From the NCBI GenBank assembly GCA_036405895.1, contig DASWWS010000001.1, forward strand, positions 71,864 through 135,863: a DNA stretch of 64,000 nt, given 5' to 3'. The notes under the pieces are model-generated. The model searched no databases, was not told the origin of the DNA, and saw only the letters and a program-made list of their open reading frames with translations. A program made the position numbers and the translations under genes. Below are positions 20,541-34,496 of the stretch, piece by piece (position 1 is the first letter of the stretch; each line of letters opens with the position of its first letter). The stretch comes from Minisyncoccota bacterium. GTDB lineage: Bacteria > Patescibacteriota > Minisyncoccia > Phycocordibacterales > UBA9973.

Positions 20541-21182
20541 ATGCTTGACAAAATCCAGAATGTATTACAAGATGACATAAATAACTCTGATATGGTAACT
20601 AAAACAAACGAGTTTGATTTCATCACAACCGATGAATCGCTCACTGTGTACCTTTCAAATTTACCCCCAAACATTCAAATCCGATATCCTGCCTTTACTT
20701 CTTTAGACGGGTTACGGGGCGTTGTTTCTATCGTTCCACATAAAGAGAGAAAAGATTATTTTCTTACGGTTCCGTACGACCTATTAAAGGCATATCTGAC
20801 CTCTAAAAGAGTTACCGGGTATACTCGTGAGACCGTGCGAACTATCACCGCAAAAGGTCTTTTAAAAGAAACTTTTCTGCGACTTGTGGATATGACATTG
20901 CTGGGCACTATTCCTGTGTCTAATACACTGCCGGGAGCTACCGAAGACCATGTAAAAAGCACGGTGTTGGTAACAAAGTATTTTCGTAGAGACGAAAAAG
21001 AACCGTATGACTATCCTCTAAAAACCGGAACTCCGGTATGGATGCACAAGGATTTGCTCGGTCAAATATTTAAGAAGGTTGTGGAAGTCAATGGGGAGAA
21101 AAAATATCACCCCCATGCAAGGCAATATAAGCAATATCTCGATTATTTGGATTTAAAGCAGATAGAAGAATCGTTTGGGTGA
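20541..21182 (+). CDS. Hypothetical protein (213 aa)
   Basis: ORF with no recognisable motif, followed by a hairpin terminator. Confidence 0.5.
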   Translation: MLDKIQNVLQDDINNSDMVTKTNEFDFITTDESLTVYLSNLPPNIQIRYPAFTSLDGLRGVVSIVPHKERKDYFLTVPYDLLKAYLTSKRVTGYTRETVRTITAKGLLKETFLRLVDMTLLGTIPVSNTLPGATEDHVKSTVLVTKYFRRDEKEPYDYPLKTGTPVWMHKDLLGQIFKKVVEVNGEKKYHPHARQYKQYLDYLDLKQIEESFG

Positions 21183-21197
21183 TAAGTGATGAAGGGT

Positions 21198-21230
21198 AAA
21201 GCCACTGTAGGGATACAGTGGCTTTTTATT
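21198..21230. terminator. Intrinsic terminator
   Basis: aaagccactgtagggatacagtggcttttta. Confidence 0.65.
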
Positions 21231-21266
21231 TGCATATTTGGGGAAATAGGGTATGATGAGTCCATT

Positions 21267-21485
21267 ATGGTAGTTCGAATGAGACACACACGTGCGCATA
21301 CGGCAAATCGCCGCAGCCACCATGCCCTAAAAGACCCAGCGCTTTCCAAAGACAATGATGGCACACTGCACATCCGTCACCGCGCAAGTCTTGATGGCAT
21401 GTACAAGGGAAAGTCAGTAATTGGCGACCCGGTAAAAGCTGTTGAGAAAAAGCAGGCGAAAAGCGTGGGTAAAAAGACTAAATAG
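21267..21485 (+). CDS. rpmF: 50S ribosomal protein L32
   Basis: MVVRMRHTRAHTANRRSHHALKDPALSKDNDGTLHIRHRASLDGMYKGKSVI matches the E. coli-type L32 (MAVQQNK..R..RRSHDAL....S.D...GE.HLRHH...DGYYRGRKVI). Confidence 0.7.
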   Translation: MVVRMRHTRAHTANRRSHHALKDPALSKDNDGTLHIRHRASLDGMYKGKSVIGDPVKAVEKKQAKSVGKKTK

Positions 21486-21500
21486 TATATAATAGTATCC

Positions 21501-22406
21501 ATGGCAAACCGCCACCTCTCGAGGTCAATTGTTCTTCAATCACTGTTCGAATGGGATTTCTCCGGCCATCCGGAGGAGCTTAAGAGTGTGATTGATCGGG
21601 ACATTGCGGAGTTCGCTCCGGGGCACAACGATACTGCATTTATCTACGAACTCGCGGAGACTGTTCAGCGCAAGCAGACAGTCATCGATGACATCATCAT
21701 GAAGGCCGCTCCCGAGTGGCCGCTCGAAAAAATTTCAAACGTTGACCGCAATGTCCTTCGCATGGGCCTTGCGGAATTATTGTTTGGCGACCGCGAACAG
21801 GTTCCTCCAAAGGTTGCAATCAACGAAGCAATCGAGCTTGCAAAAACATTCGGCGGAGAAAACTCCGGCAAGTTCGTCAACGGCGTACTCGGTGCGGTGT
21901 ATAAAGAGATCGGCGAACCGGGCAAAGATCAGGCAAGCGCACCGCGCGGAAAGAAAGTCGAAGAGCCTGTAGATCCAAGCACGCTTGTTGTGGAAGCAAA
22001 GGCGGGAGGAATCGTGCACGCGCGCCATGACGGCGTGGACTATGTTGCACTTGTCCATGATGTCTTTGGATATTGGACGCTTCCAAAAGGCGGACTTGAA
22101 GAAGGTGAGACAAACGAAATTGCCGGCAAGCGCGAGATTGAAGAGAAGCTTGGTATCGAAGTAGAGCTCGGTCCGGAGATTGGGTCTATTGATTATGTGG
22201 CATCGCATCCTGAAAAAGGGAAGATTCGCAAGGTGGTAACCTTCTATTTGGCGCAAGCACAATACCAAGAACTCGACATGCACTCAAACGGCGGACTTGA
22301 CCGCGCTGCATGGTTCCAGCTGCACGAGGTGGTTGACCTGACGATATATGATGATATATTGCCACTGATTGCGAAAGCAATCGAGCATATTACCAAGAAA
22401 GACTAG
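21501..22406 (+). CDS. nusB: NusB (N-terminal ~140 aa) fused in frame to a NUDIX hydrolase domain
   Basis: The N-terminal VLQSLFEWDFSG...VDRNVLRMGLAELLFGD..VPPKVAINEAIELAKTFGGENSGKFVNGVLGAV is NusB. The C-terminus carries the Nudix box GGLEEGETNEIAGKREIEEKLGI. The reading frame is continuous, with no stop between the two halves. Confidence 0.75.
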   Translation: MANRHLSRSIVLQSLFEWDFSGHPEELKSVIDRDIAEFAPGHNDTAFIYELAETVQRKQTVIDDIIMKAAPEWPLEKISNVDRNVLRMGLAELLFGDREQVPPKVAINEAIELAKTFGGENSGKFVNGVLGAVYKEIGEPGKDQASAPRGKKVEEPVDPSTLVVEAKAGGIVHARHDGVDYVALVHDVFGYWTLPKGGLEEGETNEIAGKREIEEKLGIEVELGPEIGSIDYVASHPEKGKIRKVVTFYLAQAQYQELDMHSNGGLDRAAWFQLHEVVDLTIYDDILPLIAKAIEHITKKD

Positions 22407-22484: not shown

Positions 22485-23177
22485 ATGATAGATTTTACTC
22501 CTTTTGAACAGTCACTCGGCATCAGCTTTGCCGATAAGTCACTGCTCCAGCGTGCGTTCACCCACCGTTCTTTTATCAATGAAAATCCAAAAAGCGGACT
22601 TGAGCACAATGAGCGTTTTGAATTTTTGGGCGACGCCGTAATTGAGTTGATTGTTACGGACTATTTGTTTCGTGCCTACCCAAACTCTGCCGAAGGCGAG
22701 CTTACAGCGTACCGAAGCGCATTGGTGAACGCTGTTATCATGGGCGAAGTTGCAGGCGTGATCAAGATGAACGACTACCTCCTCCTTTCAAAGGGCGAGA
22801 CCAAAGACACGGGTCGTGCACGCCAGACGATTCTTGCGAACACGTATGAGTCGTTTGTCGGGGCGCTCTATCTCGATCAGGGGTATGAAGTATGCAATAC
22901 CTTTGTTACTAGCACACTCCTTCCGCGCCTAGAAGACATCATCAAGATGAAGAGTTGGAAAGACCCAAAGAGTCAGGTACAAGAAGAAGCACAGGAACGC
23001 GTGGGCGTGACGCCTTCGTACCATGTCGTTGCCGAAAGCGGACCCGACCATGACAAGCATTTCACAATCGCCATCTTCTTTGGCGAGAAGAAAATCGCCG
23101 AAGGTAAGGGCCGAAGCAAGCAAGAAGCGCAGCAGGCAGCAGCGCAGGCAGCACTCGTGGCAAAAGGCTGGGCGTAA
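22485..23177 (+). CDS. rnc: Ribonuclease III
   Basis: ERFEFLGDAVIEL catalytic signature and a C-terminal dsRBD (GPDHDKHFTIAIFFGEKKIAEGKGRSKQEAQQAAAQAAL). Confidence 0.85.
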   Translation: MIDFTPFEQSLGISFADKSLLQRAFTHRSFINENPKSGLEHNERFEFLGDAVIELIVTDYLFRAYPNSAEGELTAYRSALVNAVIMGEVAGVIKMNDYLLLSKGETKDTGRARQTILANTYESFVGALYLDQGYEVCNTFVTSTLLPRLEDIIKMKSWKDPKSQVQEEAQERVGVTPSYHVVAESGPDHDKHFTIAIFFGEKKIAEGKGRSKQEAQQAAAQAALVAKGWA

Positions 23178-23180
23178 TAA

Positions 23181-23290
23181 CTAGCAAGGACGGTCCTTGC
23201 TAGGACCTAACGAGGACCGTCCTCGTTAGAATTTTTCAGAAGGACGGTCCTTCTGAAATAAAAAATCTCGTTACAGGACGAGGTTTTTTT
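23181..23290. repeat. Palindromic intergenic repeat element, copy B (three hairpin units plus a terminal hairpin with T-run = rnc terminator)
   Basis: CTAGCAAGGACGGTCCTTGCTAGG, TAACGAGGACCGTCCTCGTTA and TCAGAAGGACGGTCCTTCTGA, then ctcgttacaggacgaggttttttt. Confidence 0.8.
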
Positions 23291-23315
23291 GTGTGCGTAC
23301 GATATACTATTGTGT

Positions 23316-25592
23316 ATGCGTCTGCAGCACATAGAGATTGCCGGATTCAAGTCGTTTGCTAAAAAGAGCACGCTTGCTTTTACGGCACCTGTGACTGCAG
23401 TGGTGGGGCCGAACGGCTCGGGAAAAAGCAATGTCGTTGAAGCGTTTCGTTTTGTACTCGGCGAGCAGTCAATGAAAAGCATGCGCGGGAAAAGCGGGGC
23501 GGACCTTATTTTCCGCGGAGGCACCGGCACAAGCAAGCTCTCTCGTGCATCAGTTTCTATTACTTTCGACAACTCCGACAAAGTGTTTGCCTTTGCGCCA
23601 AGCAGTACTGAAAGCACTGTGCGCTCACCACTATTGTTTGAGAGCGTAACATTCACGCGCGAGCTTTATGCCGACGGTACGAGCAAGTACTTGATGAATG
23701 GCGCGGAAATTCGCCTCAAGCAAATGGCTGAACTCCTGTCATCGGTGAACATTGGTTCGTCTGGTCACCATATTATTTCGCAAGGGGAAGCTGATGGTAT
23801 TTTGCGCGCGTCCCCGCGCGAACGCCGTGAAATGCTCGAAGATGCGCTCGGACTAAAGATTTACCACTACCGCATCAAGGAAAGTGAGACGAAGCTTGCC
23901 CGTGCACTCGACACCCTTAAAGAAGTGCAGTCACTGCGCCGAGAAATCGTTCCTCATTTGAAATTCTTGGCTAAGCAAGTTGAGAAAGTCGAGAAAGGCC
24001 GTGCTATCCGTGTAGAACTCGAAGGTGCTCTTATACAATATTTGGCAACAGAACGAACACATCTTGGAGAAGAAGACGCACGCATTGGTAGTGCGGAGCA
24101 ATTAATCCGCACGCGCCATGCTGACCTCTCTGCACTGTTGGAAACATTGCCCGAAGAAGGTGCTGTGCACGACACAACTGTAACCGAGCGCGCAATGCTT
24201 TCAAACACCTTAAGAGAAATTCGCGATAAGCGCCGAACACTTGAAAGTCGCATCAGCCGATTGGAGGGAATGCTCGAGGCACACCGACAAATGATTGCAC
24301 GGCAGGCTGCTGTTCCTACAACGAGCGCAAGTATTTCTTTTGCAGCAACTGAATATGGGCAGCTTGTGAGCGATATCGAATTTTTCTTAAGTAATTTGCG
24401 CAGTGCCGAGAGCATTGATGCCGTGCGTGCAACACTTAGCCAGCTTGAAAGCCTGCTTGCTCGGTTGAAGACTCGCGAGAACAAACCTGTTGCGCAGGAA
24501 AATCACAACAGCCTTTCATACGATACGCTGAAAGACACGGCTCTTGAAATGGAAGGATTGCAAAAAGACCTTATCGCACTGTTGGGACAGGAAGATGAAG
24601 TAGTGGCGCGCATCAACACGCTTGAGCTTGCGCGTGAAGCGCTCTTAACCGGCAACCAAGAGAGCACTCGCAAGCGATACGAACTGCAAAGCGATATCCG
24701 CCAATGCGAAGCTGAGCTTCAAATTTTGGCCGTTTCTAAAAGCGCATTTCTTGAGCGCAAAGAATATTTTGATGCAGAGCTCAAGGAAGCAGGCTTTCTT
24801 TTCGGGCCGTCATTTATTCATGCTCTTCAGGCGGCGCAAGCGCTTCCGGAACTGAATTTGCACGACATGAAGCGGAGTATTGACCGCTTGAAGATTCGCC
24901 TTGATGAGCATTCAGGAATAGGTAACGACGTAACGGCAGAATACGAAGCGACAAAAGAGCGCGACGAATTCCTTGCTCGCGAAGTGACCGATATCGAAGC
25001 AAGCATTCGCAACCTCGAGTCGCTCATTATTGATTTGAAAAAGCTCTTGGATGAAAAGTTCACGACAGGGGTGACAGTAATCAACGAGCGCTTTGGAGAA
25101 TTCTTTAAAACAATGTTTGGAGGGGGAAGCGCATTCCTTTCAGTGACTATTGAAAAAAAGCGAAAGAAAAGAACGGACGAATCGCTCGATGATATGGACG
25201 GGGAACCAATGGATGAAAATGATGACCGATTCTTTGAGCGAGGTATTGACGTGCATGTAAATTTGCCGGAGAAAAAGGTGAAAGAGCTTCATATGCTCTC
25301 AGGGGGCGAGCGATCACTTGTTTCTATTGCGCTCCTCTTCGCGATCTCCCAAGTGAACCCACCACCATTTTTAGTGCTCGACGAAACCGATGCAGCACTC
25401 GATGAAGCAAACTCTCGCCGTTATGGAGACATGATAGAACTGTTGGCTGCCTATTCACAACTTATTGTGGTGACCCACAACCGCGAAACGATGTCGCGTG
25501 CAAGCGTGCTCTATGGAGTTACTCTTGGTGCAGACAGCGCTTCAAAACTCCTCTCGATTAAGTTCGATGATGCAGTGAAGGTAGCGAAATAA
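23316..25592 (+). CDS. smc: SMC-family chromosome condensation ATPase, short form (~758 aa)
   Basis: N-terminal head (IEIAGFKSFAKKST..VVGPNGSGKSNVVEAF). Long coiled-coil middle. C-terminal LSGGERSLVSIALLFAI signature and Walker B (FLVLDETDAALDE). It sits directly after rnc, as in the conserved rnc-smc(-ftsY) arrangement. ATG at 23316; the track ORF starts at TTG 23289. Confidence 0.7.
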   Translation: MRLQHIEIAGFKSFAKKSTLAFTAPVTAVVGPNGSGKSNVVEAFRFVLGEQSMKSMRGKSGADLIFRGGTGTSKLSRASVSITFDNSDKVFAFAPSSTESTVRSPLLFESVTFTRELYADGTSKYLMNGAEIRLKQMAELLSSVNIGSSGHHIISQGEADGILRASPRERREMLEDALGLKIYHYRIKESETKLARALDTLKEVQSLRREIVPHLKFLAKQVEKVEKGRAIRVELEGALIQYLATERTHLGEEDARIGSAEQLIRTRHADLSALLETLPEEGAVHDTTVTERAMLSNTLREIRDKRRTLESRISRLEGMLEAHRQMIARQAAVPTTSASISFAATEYGQLVSDIEFFLSNLRSAESIDAVRATLSQLESLLARLKTRENKPVAQENHNSLSYDTLKDTALEMEGLQKDLIALLGQEDEVVARINTLELAREALLTGNQESTRKRYELQSDIRQCEAELQILAVSKSAFLERKEYFDAELKEAGFLFGPSFIHALQAAQALPELNLHDMKRSIDRLKIRLDEHSGIGNDVTAEYEATKERDEFLAREVTDIEASIRNLESLIIDLKKLLDEKFTTGVTVINERFGEFFKTMFGGGSAFLSVTIEKKRKKRTDESLDDMDGEPMDENDDRFFERGIDVHVNLPEKKVKELHMLSGGERSLVSIALLFAISQVNPPPFLVLDETDAALDEANSRRYGDMIELLAAYSQLIVVTHNRETMSRASVLYGVTLGADSASKLLSIKFDDAVKVAK

Positions 25593-25595
25593 TCT

Positions 25596-26774
25596 ATGCA
25601 AGAACACTTTCCTCATTCAGATAGCCACTCTCTCGAATCGCGAATAGATGCAATTGTTGAACGACAGCTGCGTGAAATCGAACTTCAGCAAGAAGGGGTG
25701 CAGCCGGAGCAATTGGCAGTATATCGAGAAAAAGCAAACGAGTTCAAAAAAAGATTACCCGAAATGATGGATGATGAAGCTAAAGAATATTTAGCGGGCG
25801 TAAATGATGAAGAGTTCGGAGCATTAGTATTGCCAGCCCTTGCACGGCAGCATGAAAGAGGAAAAGAACATGTTCCGTTGACGAAAATCCAACTTCAAAA
25901 CATACTTTTATACCGAAAGGTATACGGGTATGGACATCCTGACTTGGAAAAACGAATCGAGCAGCATCCCATGCCTACAGCTGCAGAACTATTGCTTGGC
26001 TGCTACGCCGAACAACTTGAAGAACAGACTCGTGATGCTGTATTACTGATGAGAAAAAAAGGATATGATACTGTTCAATCTGGTTTTCACGATACATTGA
26101 AAGGTTCGCAATTTTTTGATATTTATGAAGCGAATCAAACAATGGTACCCCAAGAAATCATTGATGAAATGAAGAGTCGGTTTGGAGTGGATGTAACCAG
26201 TAAACGTCACAAGTCATCCGAGAGGACGGATATTGATCTCGTACCTACGGGGTTCAAAGATATTGCGGACTGGAAGGAAACCCTTAATCACTTCGCTGCA
26301 ATTATGCCGACGAAAGAAGAACAAGGTTTGGGTCAATACGGTATGGGTGTTGATTTTATCTATGATGCTATAAAGACATATAAGAAGGAGGATATATTGG
26401 AAACTGCTGAAACAGATCAGCAGCGTGTGTTAGTTGAGCGTTTATATGAATGCAAAAATAAGGAAGAGGTGATTTTGTTGTTACATAAAGAATCTGATTC
26501 GGCTGAACAAAGAGTGGTAGAGGAAAGACTAAAAGAAGAAGCTAAAAAAGATTTCTCGCCGGATACTGTTGAAGCTATTAATCAAATAATAAGTGAATTC
26601 ATCTCAGCATCTTTTGTTATCGATAAAGAAGATATTGAAGCCGGGTTGCAGATAATCCGGGATCAGTGCACTCACATTGGAGAAATTTATACTGACGATG
26701 CGTCTCATGGCAAGCTTTTCGCAATAATTAATCAAGCGATTCAGTATCTTGAAAACCGCTTGGAGAAAAAATAA
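25596..26774 (+). CDS. Hypothetical acidic alpha-helical protein (392 aa)
   Basis: ORF 4 nt after smc. No GTPase or other recognisable motif, so not ftsY. AT-richer than its neighbours. Confidence 0.5.
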   Translation: MQEHFPHSDSHSLESRIDAIVERQLREIELQQEGVQPEQLAVYREKANEFKKRLPEMMDDEAKEYLAGVNDEEFGALVLPALARQHERGKEHVPLTKIQLQNILLYRKVYGYGHPDLEKRIEQHPMPTAAELLLGCYAEQLEEQTRDAVLLMRKKGYDTVQSGFHDTLKGSQFFDIYEANQTMVPQEIIDEMKSRFGVDVTSKRHKSSERTDIDLVPTGFKDIADWKETLNHFAAIMPTKEEQGLGQYGMGVDFIYDAIKTYKKEDILETAETDQQRVLVERLYECKNKEEVILLLHKESDSAEQRVVEERLKEEAKKDFSPDTVEAINQIISEFISASFVIDKEDIEAGLQIIRDQCTHIGEIYTDDASHGKLFAIINQAIQYLENRLEKK

Positions 26775-26806
26775 AAACCTATCTTTATGATAGGTTTTTA
26801 TTTTTT
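26774..26806. terminator. Bidirectional intrinsic terminator
   Basis: aaaacctatctttatgataggtttttatttttt. Confidence 0.7.
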
Positions 26807-27487
26807 CTCAATTTTCTCTAAATCTTCAAACGAATTGCATGGCTGCCAGAAGGTGAGACGGTGGGCGAAGAGTGGGTAGGTGTCGACTTGTTTCAAAAGC
26901 GTTTGCGGCAAGCCGAATTCGTTGTCTATTTGCTCAACAGCAGGAAAAGAAAAAATGCGGCTGTCGAGAAGGTACATGCCGTTGGCGAATGTATCCTCTA
27001 CAAGCTCTTCTCTGTTTTCTTGAGGGTGCCGCTCCAAGCCCTCAACGTTTCCCTCGCGTGAGATTTTTATACTGTGATATTTTGCAGGCATGGTGGTTGC
27101 TGTCACACCCATTCCTATTTTTTTGCTCTCTACCACTGTTTCAAGTTCGCTCTTGGTGAAGAGGTCATCGCAATTGAGTACAAGAAATTGTTCACCTTCT
27201 TCAAATAGATCCTTTGCACAATAGACTGAGGGCCAGGTCCCGCAGATAGCAACTGGCTGAGGAACATAGATAACTTTTTTGTTGTTGTAGAGAGTGCCAA
27301 TACGCTCTTCAATCAAAGCACTTAAGTATTTTGTTGTGATGATAACAGTGTCGATGCTCTCGGGGAGGGAATTGAGAACTTCTTCCAAAAGAGTGCTTTT
27401 TCCAACCGGTATCAAGGCTTTTGGGACGCTGTCAGTGAGGGGTTGTAGTCGTGTACCTTTTCCGCCGGCGAGAATAATAGCTTTCAT
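26798..27487 (-). CDS. Sugar-phosphate nucleotidyltransferase (NTP_transferase family)
   Basis: MKAIILAGGKGTRLQPLTDSVPKALIPV N-terminal signature. Start trimmed to the ATG at 27487. Confidence 0.7.
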   Translation of the reverse strand: MKAIILAGGKGTRLQPLTDSVPKALIPVGKSTLLEEVLNSLPESIDTVIITTKYLSALIEERIGTLYNNKKVIYVPQPVAICGTWPSVYCAKDLFEEGEQFLVLNCDDLFTKSELETVVESKKIGMGVTATTMPAKYHSIKISREGNVEGLERHPQENREELVEDTFANGMYLLDSRIFSFPAVEQIDNEFGLPQTLLKQVDTYPLFAHRLTFWQPCNSFEDLEKIEKK

Positions 27488-27546
27488 TGCAATTAATACT
27501 ACCGTAAAAAAATAAAAAGCTATAGCGGGTGCCGCTATAGCTTTAG

Positions 27547-28101
27547 TTACTTTTTCTTGGAGAAATACTTTTTCCGTTTCCAGAAGCGTCTTTCGTAGAG
27601 CAATCCTTCCTGGATTTCTCTTGTTTCTTGAAACTTTAGATAGGTGAAGTACATCCATAATGCCCCTGAAGAGAAATCCCTCCAGTTCTCCATGATTTCT
27701 TTGTGAAAAAAGAACCGAGAGTCCGTGTGGTCATGACTAAGCGTGACTGTGGGGCGCTTTCCGGGTAAATTGCAATAATACAAGAACAGAGAACCATATT
27801 GAATGCCGCCAAACTCATCAGACGTTTCGATGTGAAGGCGTTGTCCTAAGACTGCATAGAGTCGCAGTTTTTTCTCTGAAATTTTAACCCCTGCTTCTTC
27901 TTCGATTTCTCGAATCAGAACCCCTTTGTGCTTGAACTCATCATTGTTGGTTCCGCCTCCAGAAAGTTCCCACAGGCCATTGTCTTCGCGCTTGAGCCAT
28001 AAGCTCTGCTCCTCGTGCCGGATTAGTCCGAACGAGCTGTTAATGGAGCGTTCTATATGAGGTCGTACCATATGTATATTTTTTTGAAACAGTACTACCA
28101 T
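27547..28101 (-). CDS. NUDIX hydrolase
   Basis: Nudix box SGGGTNNDEFKHKGVLIREIEEEAGV. The alternative start MVRPH lies 10 codons downstream. Confidence 0.65.
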   Translation of the reverse strand: MVVLFQKNIHMVRPHIERSINSSFGLIRHEEQSLWLKREDNGLWELSGGGTNNDEFKHKGVLIREIEEEAGVKISEKKLRLYAVLGQRLHIETSDEFGGIQYGSLFLYYCNLPGKRPTVTLSHDHTDSRFFFHKEIMENWRDFSSGALWMYFTYLKFQETREIQEGLLYERRFWKRKKYFSKKK

Positions 28102-28259: not shown

Positions 28260-28287
28260 TTGACTTTGATTTTCAGGTGTATATAAT
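28260..28287 (+). promoter_or_regulatory. Sigma70-like promoter upstream of the 16S rRNA gene (TTGACT, 16 bp spacer, TATAAT)
   Basis: ttgactttgattttcaggtgtatataat lies ~190 bp upstream of the mature 16S 5' end. Confidence 0.5.
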
Positions 28288-28479
28288 AGGGGTCGCTCTG
28301 GAGATAGGGCTGTGTTGTTTGAAAATCTATTGTTAAGAATTAAAATGAACGCAAATATCTATTAAAGAAACCTAACTATTCCAAGTTAATTAAGTAAGGA
28401 GGCAAGCATACGGAGATTCGGAAATACCAATTTTCTCTTGCCTCAGTCTAAGATGTAGTTTTAAACTTATCTTTTAAGA

Positions 28480-30189
<1,710 letters not shown>

Positions 30190-30395
30190 CAAATTGAGAT
30201 GTTTTCTCATTGTCCCTCGTGGATGGTGATAAGATTGATACGGTTGAACCGGCGCAAGTCGGAAAAAGGTTGTGGTATGTGACTTAATACATACTCCCTG
30301 TGCAAGGGTTAGAGCACAAAAATCCTCTCGTACGTATCTATAGAGCGTATGAGCGGTAGACTGAGGCAAAAGAAAGTTGATATACTTTACTGGTA

Positions 30396-34123: not shown

Positions 34124-34463
34124 GAGGGGTTGTACCGCTCGATCGCTCTTGATTCAGTAATTGAGTCAGGGGAGGAAAGTCCGAACACACAACGATTCAA
34201 TTCGTACAGGTAGCGGGTAATTCCCGTCTGGCGCAAGCCACGAGGTGCGAACAGAGACGCCCGCGCAGAAATGCAAAGGATTCCTCCTCTCTTGTAGATG
34301 AGGAATAGCTCCTTTGGTAACAAAGGAGTTGAAACGGCTAAATCCTTACTTGTGTGCAAGGCCGTGCCCCGCAAAGCCGGGGAGTGCTGCTAGAGGGAGT
34401 TGGCAACAACTCTCCCAGATAAATGATCGATAGAACAGAATTCGGCTTACGAGTACAACACAT
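34124..34463 (+). ncRNA. rnpB: RNase P RNA (bacterial type A-like)
   Basis: GGAGGAAAGTCCGAACAC (P4 5' strand). ACAGGTAGCGGGTAATTCCCG. The CAGAAATGC...ACAGAATTCGGCTTA P4 3' strand near the 3' end. P1 pairing GTTGTAC/GTACAAC. Followed by the hairpin aaaaaacatcctgaaacggatgtttttt. Confidence 0.75.
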
Positions 34464-34496
34464 GAAAAAACATCCTGAAACGGATGTTTTTTCTTA

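Follow-up and report, generated by a model that had tools for sequence, protein, structure and literature searches.

Among the core factors of rRNA transcription in bacteria, NusB is universal and usually consists of one domain, and canonical NusB proteins comprise 130–150 amino acids (aa). Here we describe a gene that encodes a complete NusB domain fused in frame to a Nudix-fold domain. The gene occupies positions 21501–22406 of a 64,000-nucleotide (nt) stretch of DNA from a Minisyncoccota bacterium (contig DASWWS010000001.1, positions 71,864 to 135,863), hereafter called the window. Several described systems invite comparison with this locus. In RsmB/Sun, a NusB-fold domain is fused to an enzyme-fold domain that acts on rRNA, the 16S m5C methyltransferase. 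NUDT21/CFIm25, a non-catalytic Nudix-fold subunit of an RNA-processing complex, binds UGUA RNA and diadenosine tetraphosphate (Ap4A). In the box of NUDT21, GX5EX7RLX2EIXGR, Glu is missing at the same two positions at which the fusion family described here is variable (PMC5389931). In the NrtR regulators, a Nudix-like domain serves as an effector sensor (PMC2330246). Finally, SuhB, a protein with the inositol-monophosphatase (IMPase) fold, is required for NusB/E to be stably incorporated into the rrn antitermination complex (PMC6614801); the growth phenotype of SuhB can be separated from its IMPase activity (PMC4807359).

The protein encoded at this locus shares with canonical NusB the full-length N-terminal 138 residues, the fold, the Phe that stacks on U8 of boxA, the U8-reading acid, the aromatic residue of the NusE interface and the N-terminal arginines, whereas the 25-aa linker and the 136-aa Nudix-fold domain are additions. 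Unlike the fusion, RsmB/Sun carries an S-adenosylmethionine-dependent methyltransferase as the partner domain, and its NusB-like domain is a paralogue of the housekeeping NusB. Indeed, the RsmB models matched only the NusB region of the fusion (residues 29–138), with 20–47 bits against cut-offs of 269–540, the best match reaching 47 bits against a cut-off of 319. NrtR and AraR resemble the fusion in that a Nudix fold with a degenerate box is joined to a nucleic-acid-binding transcription module and binds an effector (PMC2330246). However, the winged-helix DNA-binding domain of NrtR is C-terminal of the Nudix domain and targets promoter DNA, whereas the fusion has an N-terminal, RNA-binding NusB. 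When the fusion was examined for membership in the NrtR family, no winged helix-turn-helix was found, the domain order was reversed and the partner was NusB, so that the resemblance is confined to the Nudix fold. NUDT21/CFIm25, in contrast to the fusion, is eukaryotic and not fused to NusB, and it is absent from the top structural matches. The Ap4A and diadenosine hexaphosphate (Ap6A) hydrolases (Aquifex aq_158, 3i7u; Ndx1, 1vc8), together with MutT1/Rv2985, share with the Nudix half 28–29% sequence identity, template modelling scores (TMt) of 0.85–0.87 and a W-x-x-P-K-G motif ahead of the Nudix box, but these enzymes have the canonical REUXEE, whereas the protein studied here has REIEEK and most of its orthologues lack at least one catalytic residue. 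In addition, these hydrolases are free-standing or fused to a histidine phosphatase, not to NusB. The likeness to SuhB of the Escherichia coli rRNA transcription antitermination complex (rrnTAC) lies in the role that we propose for the Nudix domain, that of an enzyme-fold architectural subunit that stabilizes NusB/E on the rrn leader. SuhB has a different fold, shows no homology and acts as a separate, dimeric polypeptide, and the proposed analogy is functional only.

The fusion gene and its parts are as follows:

21501..22406, forward strand: NusB-Nudix fusion coding sequence, 301 aa plus stop codon, ATG start (from the list of open reading frames, ORFs)
21501..21914, forward strand: NusB domain, aa 1–138, seven helices (PF01029, TIGR01951, AlphaFold 2 (AF2) model, Foldseek)
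21915..21995, forward strand: linker, aa 139–165, GEPGKDQASAPRGKKVEEPVDPS, predicted to be disordered
21996..22403, forward strand: Nudix-fold domain, aa 166–301, of the Ap(n)A-hydrolase/MutT1 lineage (PF00293, PDB sequence matches, Foldseek)
22089..22157, forward strand: non-canonical Nudix box, aa 197–219, GGLEEGETNEIAGKREIEEKLGI (sequence reading and alignment to solved Nudix enzymes)

An earlier note, made from the letters of the window, had described a 301-aa in-frame fusion of a complete NusB domain, a Gly/Pro/Lys linker and a NUDIX domain, and this description was borne out by the ORF list, Pfam and TIGR01951. Pfam NusB (PF01029) matched residues 7–135 with 115.3 bits (cut-off 23.1), covering profile positions 3–133 of 133, whereas the NCBIfam nusB equivalog TIGR01951 scored 119.9 bits against a cut-off of 88.35 over positions 2–130 of 131. 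Pfam NUDIX matched residues 189–283 with 48.9 bits (cut-off 21.1). The AF2 model of the fusion had a mean predicted local distance difference test score (pLDDT) of 90 and a predicted template modelling score (pTM) of 0.63. The linker of about 25 residues is rich in Lys and Pro, and its residues 140–153 had pLDDT values below 50, that is, they are predicted to be disordered. This low linker confidence, combined with the pTM value, suggests two independent domains on a flexible tether. Neither the linker nor its immediate surroundings contain a Met, which leaves the Nudix half no option of being translated independently from an ATG.

The fusion is real, ancient and widespread across a clade of Paceibacteria, members of the candidate phyla radiation (CPR). 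A survey of one genome per GTDB species yielded at least 600 matching stretches, among them at least 541 candidates encoding a relative, and the best 80 of these were examined. All 80 cover residues 1 to about 300 of the protein, with 58–89% identity; the metagenome-assembled genomes from which they come are labelled Candidatus Nomurabacteria, Paceibacterota, Paceibacteria or Minisyncoccia, and within one bulk submission a number of records bear the label 'uncultured Candidatus Saccharibacteria'. The earlier note had proposed to search for the same fusion in related genomes, and it was found uninterrupted throughout this set: in 80 of 80 loci the frame is open from the ATG aligned with that of the query to a stop codon 295–320 codons further on, with zero internal stops, the only shorter locus being one in which the contig end cuts the frame (L012). 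Among the best 120 protein clusters (90% identity; NCBI, JGI, ENA and Logan), both Pfam domains are present in all, and the length is 297–309 aa nearly throughout, apart from a few truncated entries. A HMMER search against 1.84 billion representatives (50% identity) returned 138 proteins with E < 1e-30, among them 58 full-length fusion representatives with identities down to 33%. The GEPGKD motif at the start of the linker is kept over the whole range of 58–89% identity in the 80 loci, whereas the Lys-rich middle of the linker is variable in length and is the only part of it with insertions and deletions; the ratio of nonsynonymous to synonymous substitution rates (dN/dS) of the linker is approximately 0.06–0.09.

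Separate nusB and nudix genes or a stop codon in the linker of related genomes, which the earlier note had named as evidence against a fusion, turned up in a single case. In L081, a metagenome contig of 2.4 kb, a NusB of 133 aa and a NUDIX protein of 141 aa are called as separate genes between rpmF and rnc. Translation of this contig shows a single in-frame TAA at the codon of the conserved Tyr134 (...GVLGAV*KELGEPRKDQ...), after which the conserved linker continues in the same frame. The split thus goes back either to a nonsense change of recent date or to a read error and does not represent an ancestral two-gene state. This contig is also the only point in favor of an artefact of assembly, frameshift or gene calling that would have joined two genes, an explanation to which we assign a practically negligible probability and which is ruled out by the occurrence of a protein 100% identical to the query (P0001) on 8 contigs, by the more than 120 clusters from four data sources and by the 80 open frames. 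A second locus, L082, was considered as a split fusion and rejected. It encodes a stand-alone NusB of 144 aa that ends in ...YREMEKNNDK and lacks the GEPGKD motif; the N-terminus of rnc comes immediately after it, that is, the Nudix domain is absent. This arrangement suggests that the ancestral order was rpmF-nusB-rnc and that the Nudix-fold domain was added 3' of nusB in one sub-lineage.

Public annotations of the family read 'transcription antitermination factor NusB' or 'N utilization substance protein B', and one truncated entry of 258 aa is annotated 'MutT'. A literature search retrieved no paper on a NusB-Nudix fusion, and a comprehensive review of the Nudix clan never mentions NusB (PMC5389931). 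Both domains are well known; their combination and the pattern of box degeneration described below are new. Related organisms also have NusB proteins of comparable length in which the place of Nudix is taken by another domain, Ribosomal_L9_C in one protein and SPOR in one, and two others (P0234 and P0251) have long, low-complexity inserts rich in Lys and Glu after NusB. In these bacteria, the NusB C-terminus thus seems to be a preferred site of additions.

The closest solved sequences to the Nudix half are the Nudix domain of MutT1, the Ap6A hydrolase Ndx1, the Aquifex Ap4A hydrolase, the diadenosine polyphosphatase Rv2985 and CT771, with BdRppH as a weaker PDB sequence match. The structural comparison with Foldseek gave TMt values of 0.87 for 3i7u and 0.85 for 1vc8, and the Nudix domain of NrtR (3gz8) ranked 6th. 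Membership in the RppH family was rejected, given that the RppH equivalogs NF001934–NF001938 scored only 16–25 bits against cut-offs of 116–259; the best of these models, NF001936, reached 24.9 bits against a cut-off of 118, with the match limited to the box region (residues 181–222).

The earlier note had called the Nudix box intact, which proved to be wrong. When aligned with the consensus GX5EX7REUXEEXGU, the box GGLEEGETNEIAGKREIEEKLGI reads G-GLEEG-E-TNEIAGK-R-E-I-E-E-K-L-G-I, so that five of the six signature residues are kept (G197, E203, R211, E212 and E215), whereas the second Glu of REUXEE is replaced by Lys216 (codon AAG, 22146–22148), yielding REIEEK. In the HMMER alignments, Lys216 stands opposite Glu in Mycobacterium smegmatis MutT1 (REIHEE), Thermus thermophilus Ndx1 (REVWEE) and the Aquifex Ap4A hydrolase (REVWEE). 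The same position is the site changed in PDB entry 1vc9, 'Ap6A hydrolase E50Q mutant-Mg2+-ATP complex'. The glutamates of the Nudix-box helix ligate the catalytic divalent metals, and from general Nudix enzymology a Lys at position 216 is expected to impair catalysis severely. Hydrolysis by this protein probably is lost or greatly reduced, as judged from the sequence. Close relatives (L001–L033; codons at 22140–22148) show what looks like a charge swap on the catalytic helix, with REIKEE as the canonical form, REIKEK and REIQEK as intermediates and REIEEK in the query; apparently, the replacement of Glu216 by Lys was followed by that of Lys214 by Glu.

The box is also poorly conserved in the family as a whole. 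Among 59 non-redundant fusions, the catalytic positions are occupied as follows:

Box position 203: Glu in 38 of 59
Box position 211: Arg in 34 of 59
Box position 212 (first Glu of REUXEE): Glu in 15 of 59
Box position 215: Glu in 33 of 59
Box position 216: Glu in 43 of 59, Lys in 9 of 59

In a larger set of 131 fusions (80 species genomes and 51 representatives), the six signature residues are all present in only 37, and Fitch parsimony on a neighbour-joining tree requires a minimum of 18 changes between the intact and the non-intact state. The group to which the query belongs comprises about 30 sampled sequences, all with Lys216, in the forms REIKEK, REIEEK and REIQEK, and in one sub-branch of this group E212 and G197 are lost as well (S....RS.KEK). 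The change goes furthest in P0159, in which 6 residues of the box are deleted and PKG is replaced by PEA, and for which Pfam records NusB only and no NUDIX. Its model nevertheless has a pLDDT of 91.7 and the same Nudix-fold topology as the query. The best PDB match of P0159 is the non-catalytic Nudix domain of NrtR (3gz8), and further ranked matches are Ap4A hydrolases, NrtR/AraR regulators and C-terminal domains of MutY. According to this model, the Nudix fold is kept in the most divergent members without a recognizable box.

The Nudix half is under purifying selection. The dN/dS values, calculated by the method of Nei and Gojobori, were 0.17 for the Nudix half and 0.11 for the NusB half across the family (18 pairs), and 0.07 for the Nudix half, 0.05 for the NusB half and 0.07 for the altered box region within the clade with Lys216 (22 pairs). 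Because dS was 1.0–1.4, that is, near saturation, these ratios are approximate, but the low dN (0.07–0.19) is robust. The possibility that the Nudix half is a decaying pseudo-domain is ruled out by its dN/dS of 0.07–0.17. The most conserved residues of the Nudix half (≥90%) are G169, W192, K196, W271 and Y283, none of which is among the catalytic signature residues or lies within the 23-residue box. Of these, W192 and K196 belong to the W-x-x-P-K-G motif, which also occurs in Ndx1 and the Ap4A hydrolases. In the Ap4A hydrolases, the phosphates of the substrate are contacted by the Lys of the motif. If this contact also applies here, a phosphate-binding pocket would be better conserved than the catalytic apparatus.

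In the AF2 model the pLDDT exceeds 90 over the helices of the NusB half (residues 4–137), and the structural matches include E. coli NusB from the NusB-S10 complex (3imq; TMt 0.89, root-mean-square deviation 1.6 Å) and 3r2c (TMt 0.88). Approximately 30 positions of this half are at least 80% identical among the 59 non-redundant fusions. In E. coli, F122 stacks on U8 of boxA and the F122D variant is defective (PMC3177189); the residue of the fusion that corresponds to F122 is F125, which shows no variation among 78 aligned fusions. D82 aligns with E81 of AaNusB, which reads U8 of boxA (PMC3177189), and is Asp in 94% of the aligned fusions. An aromatic residue, F16, is retained at the position of Y18 of EcNusB, a residue of the NusE interface that is changed in nusB5 (PMC3177189), and R4 and R8 correspond to the N-terminal arginines of NusB. 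Judging from these residues and the modelled fold, the NusB half looks fully functional and would be able to bind S10 and boxA. No second NusB was found within the window. On sequence grounds, the fusion is taken as the orthologue of the housekeeping nusB, an assignment supported by the TIGR01951 score above the cut-off, the stand-alone NusB in the same slot of L082, the lack of a second NusB in the window, the conserved key residues and a boxA-like element in the leader of the 16S rRNA.

This leader and the rRNA gene are located about 6 kb downstream of the fusion:

28260..28325, forward strand: 16S rRNA leader, with a promoter at 28260–28287 and a boxA-like element at 28313–28325
28473–30194, forward strand: 16S rRNA gene (Rfam scan)

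The leader promoter reads TTGACT-16 nt-TATAAT, and the boxA-like element TGTTGTTTGAAAA follows 26 nt after it, ahead of the 16S gene. There is one exact match to TGTTGTTTGAAAA in the window, and 0.22 matches would be expected with at most 1 mismatch. The core of the element, GTTGTTTGAAA, fits 9 of 11 positions of GYTCTTTAANA, the gamma-proteobacterial boxA consensus (PMC5725501); of the two mismatches, one exchanges a purine for another purine, at a position described as tolerant (PMC3177189). When as many as 3 mismatches were allowed, a search for TGCTCTTTAACAA, the boxA of E. coli, was uninformative (34 matches vs. 25.8 expected). A boxA search of the 80 related loci gave no match, their flanks ending short of the 16S leader, and a literature search for boxA sequences of Gram-positive bacteria or mycobacteria retrieved nothing of relevance. 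The boxA-like element is the presumed RNA target of the NusB half; this evidence is supportive, not decisive. The 16S match extends over 1722 nt compared with 1533 positions of the model, indicating an insertion of about 190 nt. No 23S or 5S rRNA was found next to the 16S gene or anywhere in the window at the Rfam gathering thresholds; thus, the rRNA genes appear to be unlinked.

The position of the fusion after rpmF and before rnc, as given in the earlier note, was confirmed by Pfam L32p upstream and by RNase III and dsrm downstream:

21186..21485, forward strand: rpmF (ribosomal protein L32), PF01783/TIGR01031 at aa 32–79 of the ORF
22485..23177, forward strand: rnc (RNase III), with Ribonucleas_3_3, Ribonuclease_3 and dsrm (Pfam)

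The gene order, with thrS on the reverse strand followed by rpmF, the fusion, rnc and an smc-like gene, is conserved: rpmF is present in 78, rnc in 79 and smc in 70 of the 80 loci, and the order is also seen in P0159, P0199 and P0230, the most divergent of the fusions that were examined. The true start of rpmF is probably the ATG at 21267 or 21279, and the ORF as called includes a terminator-like hairpin with a 12-bp stem (21198–21225) and a promoter-like site (21229–21257). Given this hairpin and promoter-like site before rpmF, the gap of only 15 nt between rpmF and the fusion and a terminator-like hairpin 3' of rnc (23207–23229), the three genes look like one operon, rpmF-fusion-rnc, with rpmF as the first gene. 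A further promoter-like site on the forward strand lies within the 3' end of the fusion coding sequence (22333–22360; TTGACC-16-TATATT with an upstream TG, 10 of 12 matches), about 125 nt upstream of rnc, and could supply a separate transcription start for rnc.

Several observations concern the surrounding genes. The smc-like ORF at 23289–25592 on the forward strand encodes 767 aa, of which residues 12–749 match Pfam SMC_N (the head halves), and no SMC hinge domain was matched in this protein by Pfam at E ≤ 1e-3. A gene of about 2.2–2.3 kb, similar in size to the SMC-like ORF, follows rnc in 70 of the 80 related loci, and the lineage may carry a short-armed or hinge-less SMC. Two ORFs on the forward strand, at 20541–21182 (213 aa) and 25596–26774 (392 aa), have no Pfam match; the former occurs between thrS and rpmF in only 6 of the 80 loci and therefore appears to be a variable insertion in an otherwise fixed order. 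The second, free-standing Nudix ORF that the earlier note had placed at 27547–28101 is indeed present on the reverse strand (Pfam, 31.2 bits). It contains REIEEEAGV, with a canonical REUXEE, and in its box, GGTNNDEFKHKGVLIREIEEEAGV, the upstream Glu is separated from RE by 8 residues, compared with 7 in the canonical box. There was no tblastn cross-hit between this gene and the fused domain, so that the two are not close paralogues. Its 5' end overlaps the called start of a nucleotidyltransferase ORF (26798–27658), the Pfam match of which starts at residue 58, suggesting that the true start of that gene is probably an internal Met. The Rfam scan also identified a bacterial class A RNase P RNA at 34127–34465 on the forward strand (116.4 bits). 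A stretch of 15 kb is thus rich in genes of RNA processing and the ribosome, with rnc, nusB, rpmF, 16S and RNase P RNA.

We consider the odds about even that the protein is a housekeeping NusB with a tethered, largely non-hydrolytic Nudix-fold binding module that functions in rRNA transcription or processing. Under this proposal, the nusB gene of a large clade of Paceibacteria (Nomurabacteria) would have acquired, at its 3' end, a Nudix-fold domain from an enzyme of the Ap(n)A-hydrolase/MutT1 type. The NusB half would pair with S10 (NusE) and bind boxA in the nascent rRNA leader, and the boxA-bound NusB/S10 would nucleate a complex that modifies RNA polymerase and supports rRNA synthesis and folding. 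The disordered tether of about 25 residues would hold the Nudix half beside the nascent leader RNA and this complex. Because the catalytic residues are not conserved, the metal-ligand Glu is Lys in this protein and the fold is under purifying selection, the conserved job of the Nudix domain is, as read from the sequences, most likely binding rather than pyrophosphate hydrolysis. Candidate partners would be a phosphate-bearing nucleotide or dinucleoside polyphosphate, the 5' end of the leader RNA, or another protein of the complex, and the domain may act in a manner analogous to SuhB, the degenerate sensor domain of NrtR or NUDT21/CFIm25. A more specific version, which we regard as possible but hold with considerable reserve, has the Nudix half act within the rRNA antitermination machinery as a pseudoenzyme, a sensor or adaptor that would bind Ap4A or another dinucleoside tetraphosphate (Np4N), a different alarmone, or the 5'-triphosphate of the leader, and would thereby gate or stabilize the assembly of NusB/S10 on boxA. 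If so, it would be a fused, ligand-responsive counterpart of SuhB that links rRNA synthesis and processing to the nucleotide state, in an organism with a minimal regulatory repertoire.

Several observations weigh against a non-hydrolytic binding module. The protein studied here retains G197, E203, R211, E212 and E215, and the Glu gained at position 214 in the change from REIKEE to REIEEK might partly compensate for the loss of Glu216. Approximately 28% of the family has a fully canonical box, so that enzymatic activity may have been present in the ancestral fusion and may persist in some of today's lineages. Furthermore, substituted boxes can stay active with altered chemistry, as in the GDP-sugar glycosyl hydrolases with RLX2AE (PMC5389931). 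No more than 18–22 pairs, with nearly saturated dS, underlie the dN/dS values, and the boxA assignment is a match at 9 of 11 positions in a single leader.

In one alternative, the Nudix half would be catalytically active, either as a pyrophosphohydrolase of RNA 5' ends or as a decapping enzyme (RppH-like or acting on Np4N caps). NusB would deliver it to nascent boxA-containing leaders, so that the conversion of the 5' end would be coupled to processing by RNase III. Such an enzyme would fit the operon shared with rnc and the presence of BdRppH and Ap4A hydrolases among the structural neighbours, and the flexible tether would reach an RNA 5' end located about 30–50 nt from boxA. The query has five of the six signature residues, and in the lineages with a complete box, 37 of the 131 family members, this possibility is more plausible. 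However, Lys216 occupies the place of the catalytic-helix Glu, and position 212 is Glu in only 15 of 59 fusions; the box has been lost repeatedly while the domain was retained, and the box-less P0159 keeps the same architecture and synteny. In addition, the scores with the RppH equivalogs (16–25 bits vs. cut-offs of 116–259) are far too low, and the domain is closest to Ap(n)A hydrolases, MutT1 and NrtR. We therefore regard an active enzyme as unlikely for this protein. The earlier note had suggested a coupled role in rRNA or mRNA 5'-end metabolism. Since the fusion proved to be genuine and ancient, with an unbroken frame and a conserved gene neighbourhood, the part of this suggestion that concerns a functional link of the Nudix domain with the RNA-associated role of NusB is plausible, whereas an active 5'-end or cap enzyme is disfavored by Lys216, the unconserved box and the RppH scores.

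The two halves might also be uncoupled, if a housekeeping Nudix gene for nucleotide-pool or Ap(n)A hydrolysis had been inserted between nusB and rnc and the stop codon lost, with both halves continuing to function independently. Co-translation would save a promoter in a tiny genome, the domains are predicted to be structurally independent, the nearest relatives of the Nudix half are the free-standing Ap4A/Ap6A hydrolases and MutT1, and the other NusB C-terminal fusions in the CPR (L9_C and SPOR) suggest that this end tolerates additions. Against this, repeated decay of the catalytic motif with retention of both the fold and the fusion is unexpected for a housekeeping hydrolase, the GEPGKD motif of the linker is conserved with low dN/dS, and the genes were re-separated in 0 of 80 genomes, the sole 'split' being a point nonsense change. 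We consider uncoupled halves improbable.

The clade-wide presence of an additional domain on NusB that is maintained by selection implies that the machinery of antitermination and ribosome biogenesis in a major CPR lineage differs from the E. coli model. Should the Nudix half prove to bind without catalysis, it would be a bacterial Nudix pseudoenzyme in an RNA-associated complex, to be placed alongside NrtR and NUDT21. The canonical, partly degenerate and box-less variants within one orthologous, syntenic series provide a natural series for the change from an enzyme to a binding module, and the soluble protein of 301 aa offers a tractable handle on regulation in uncultivated bacteria with reduced genomes.

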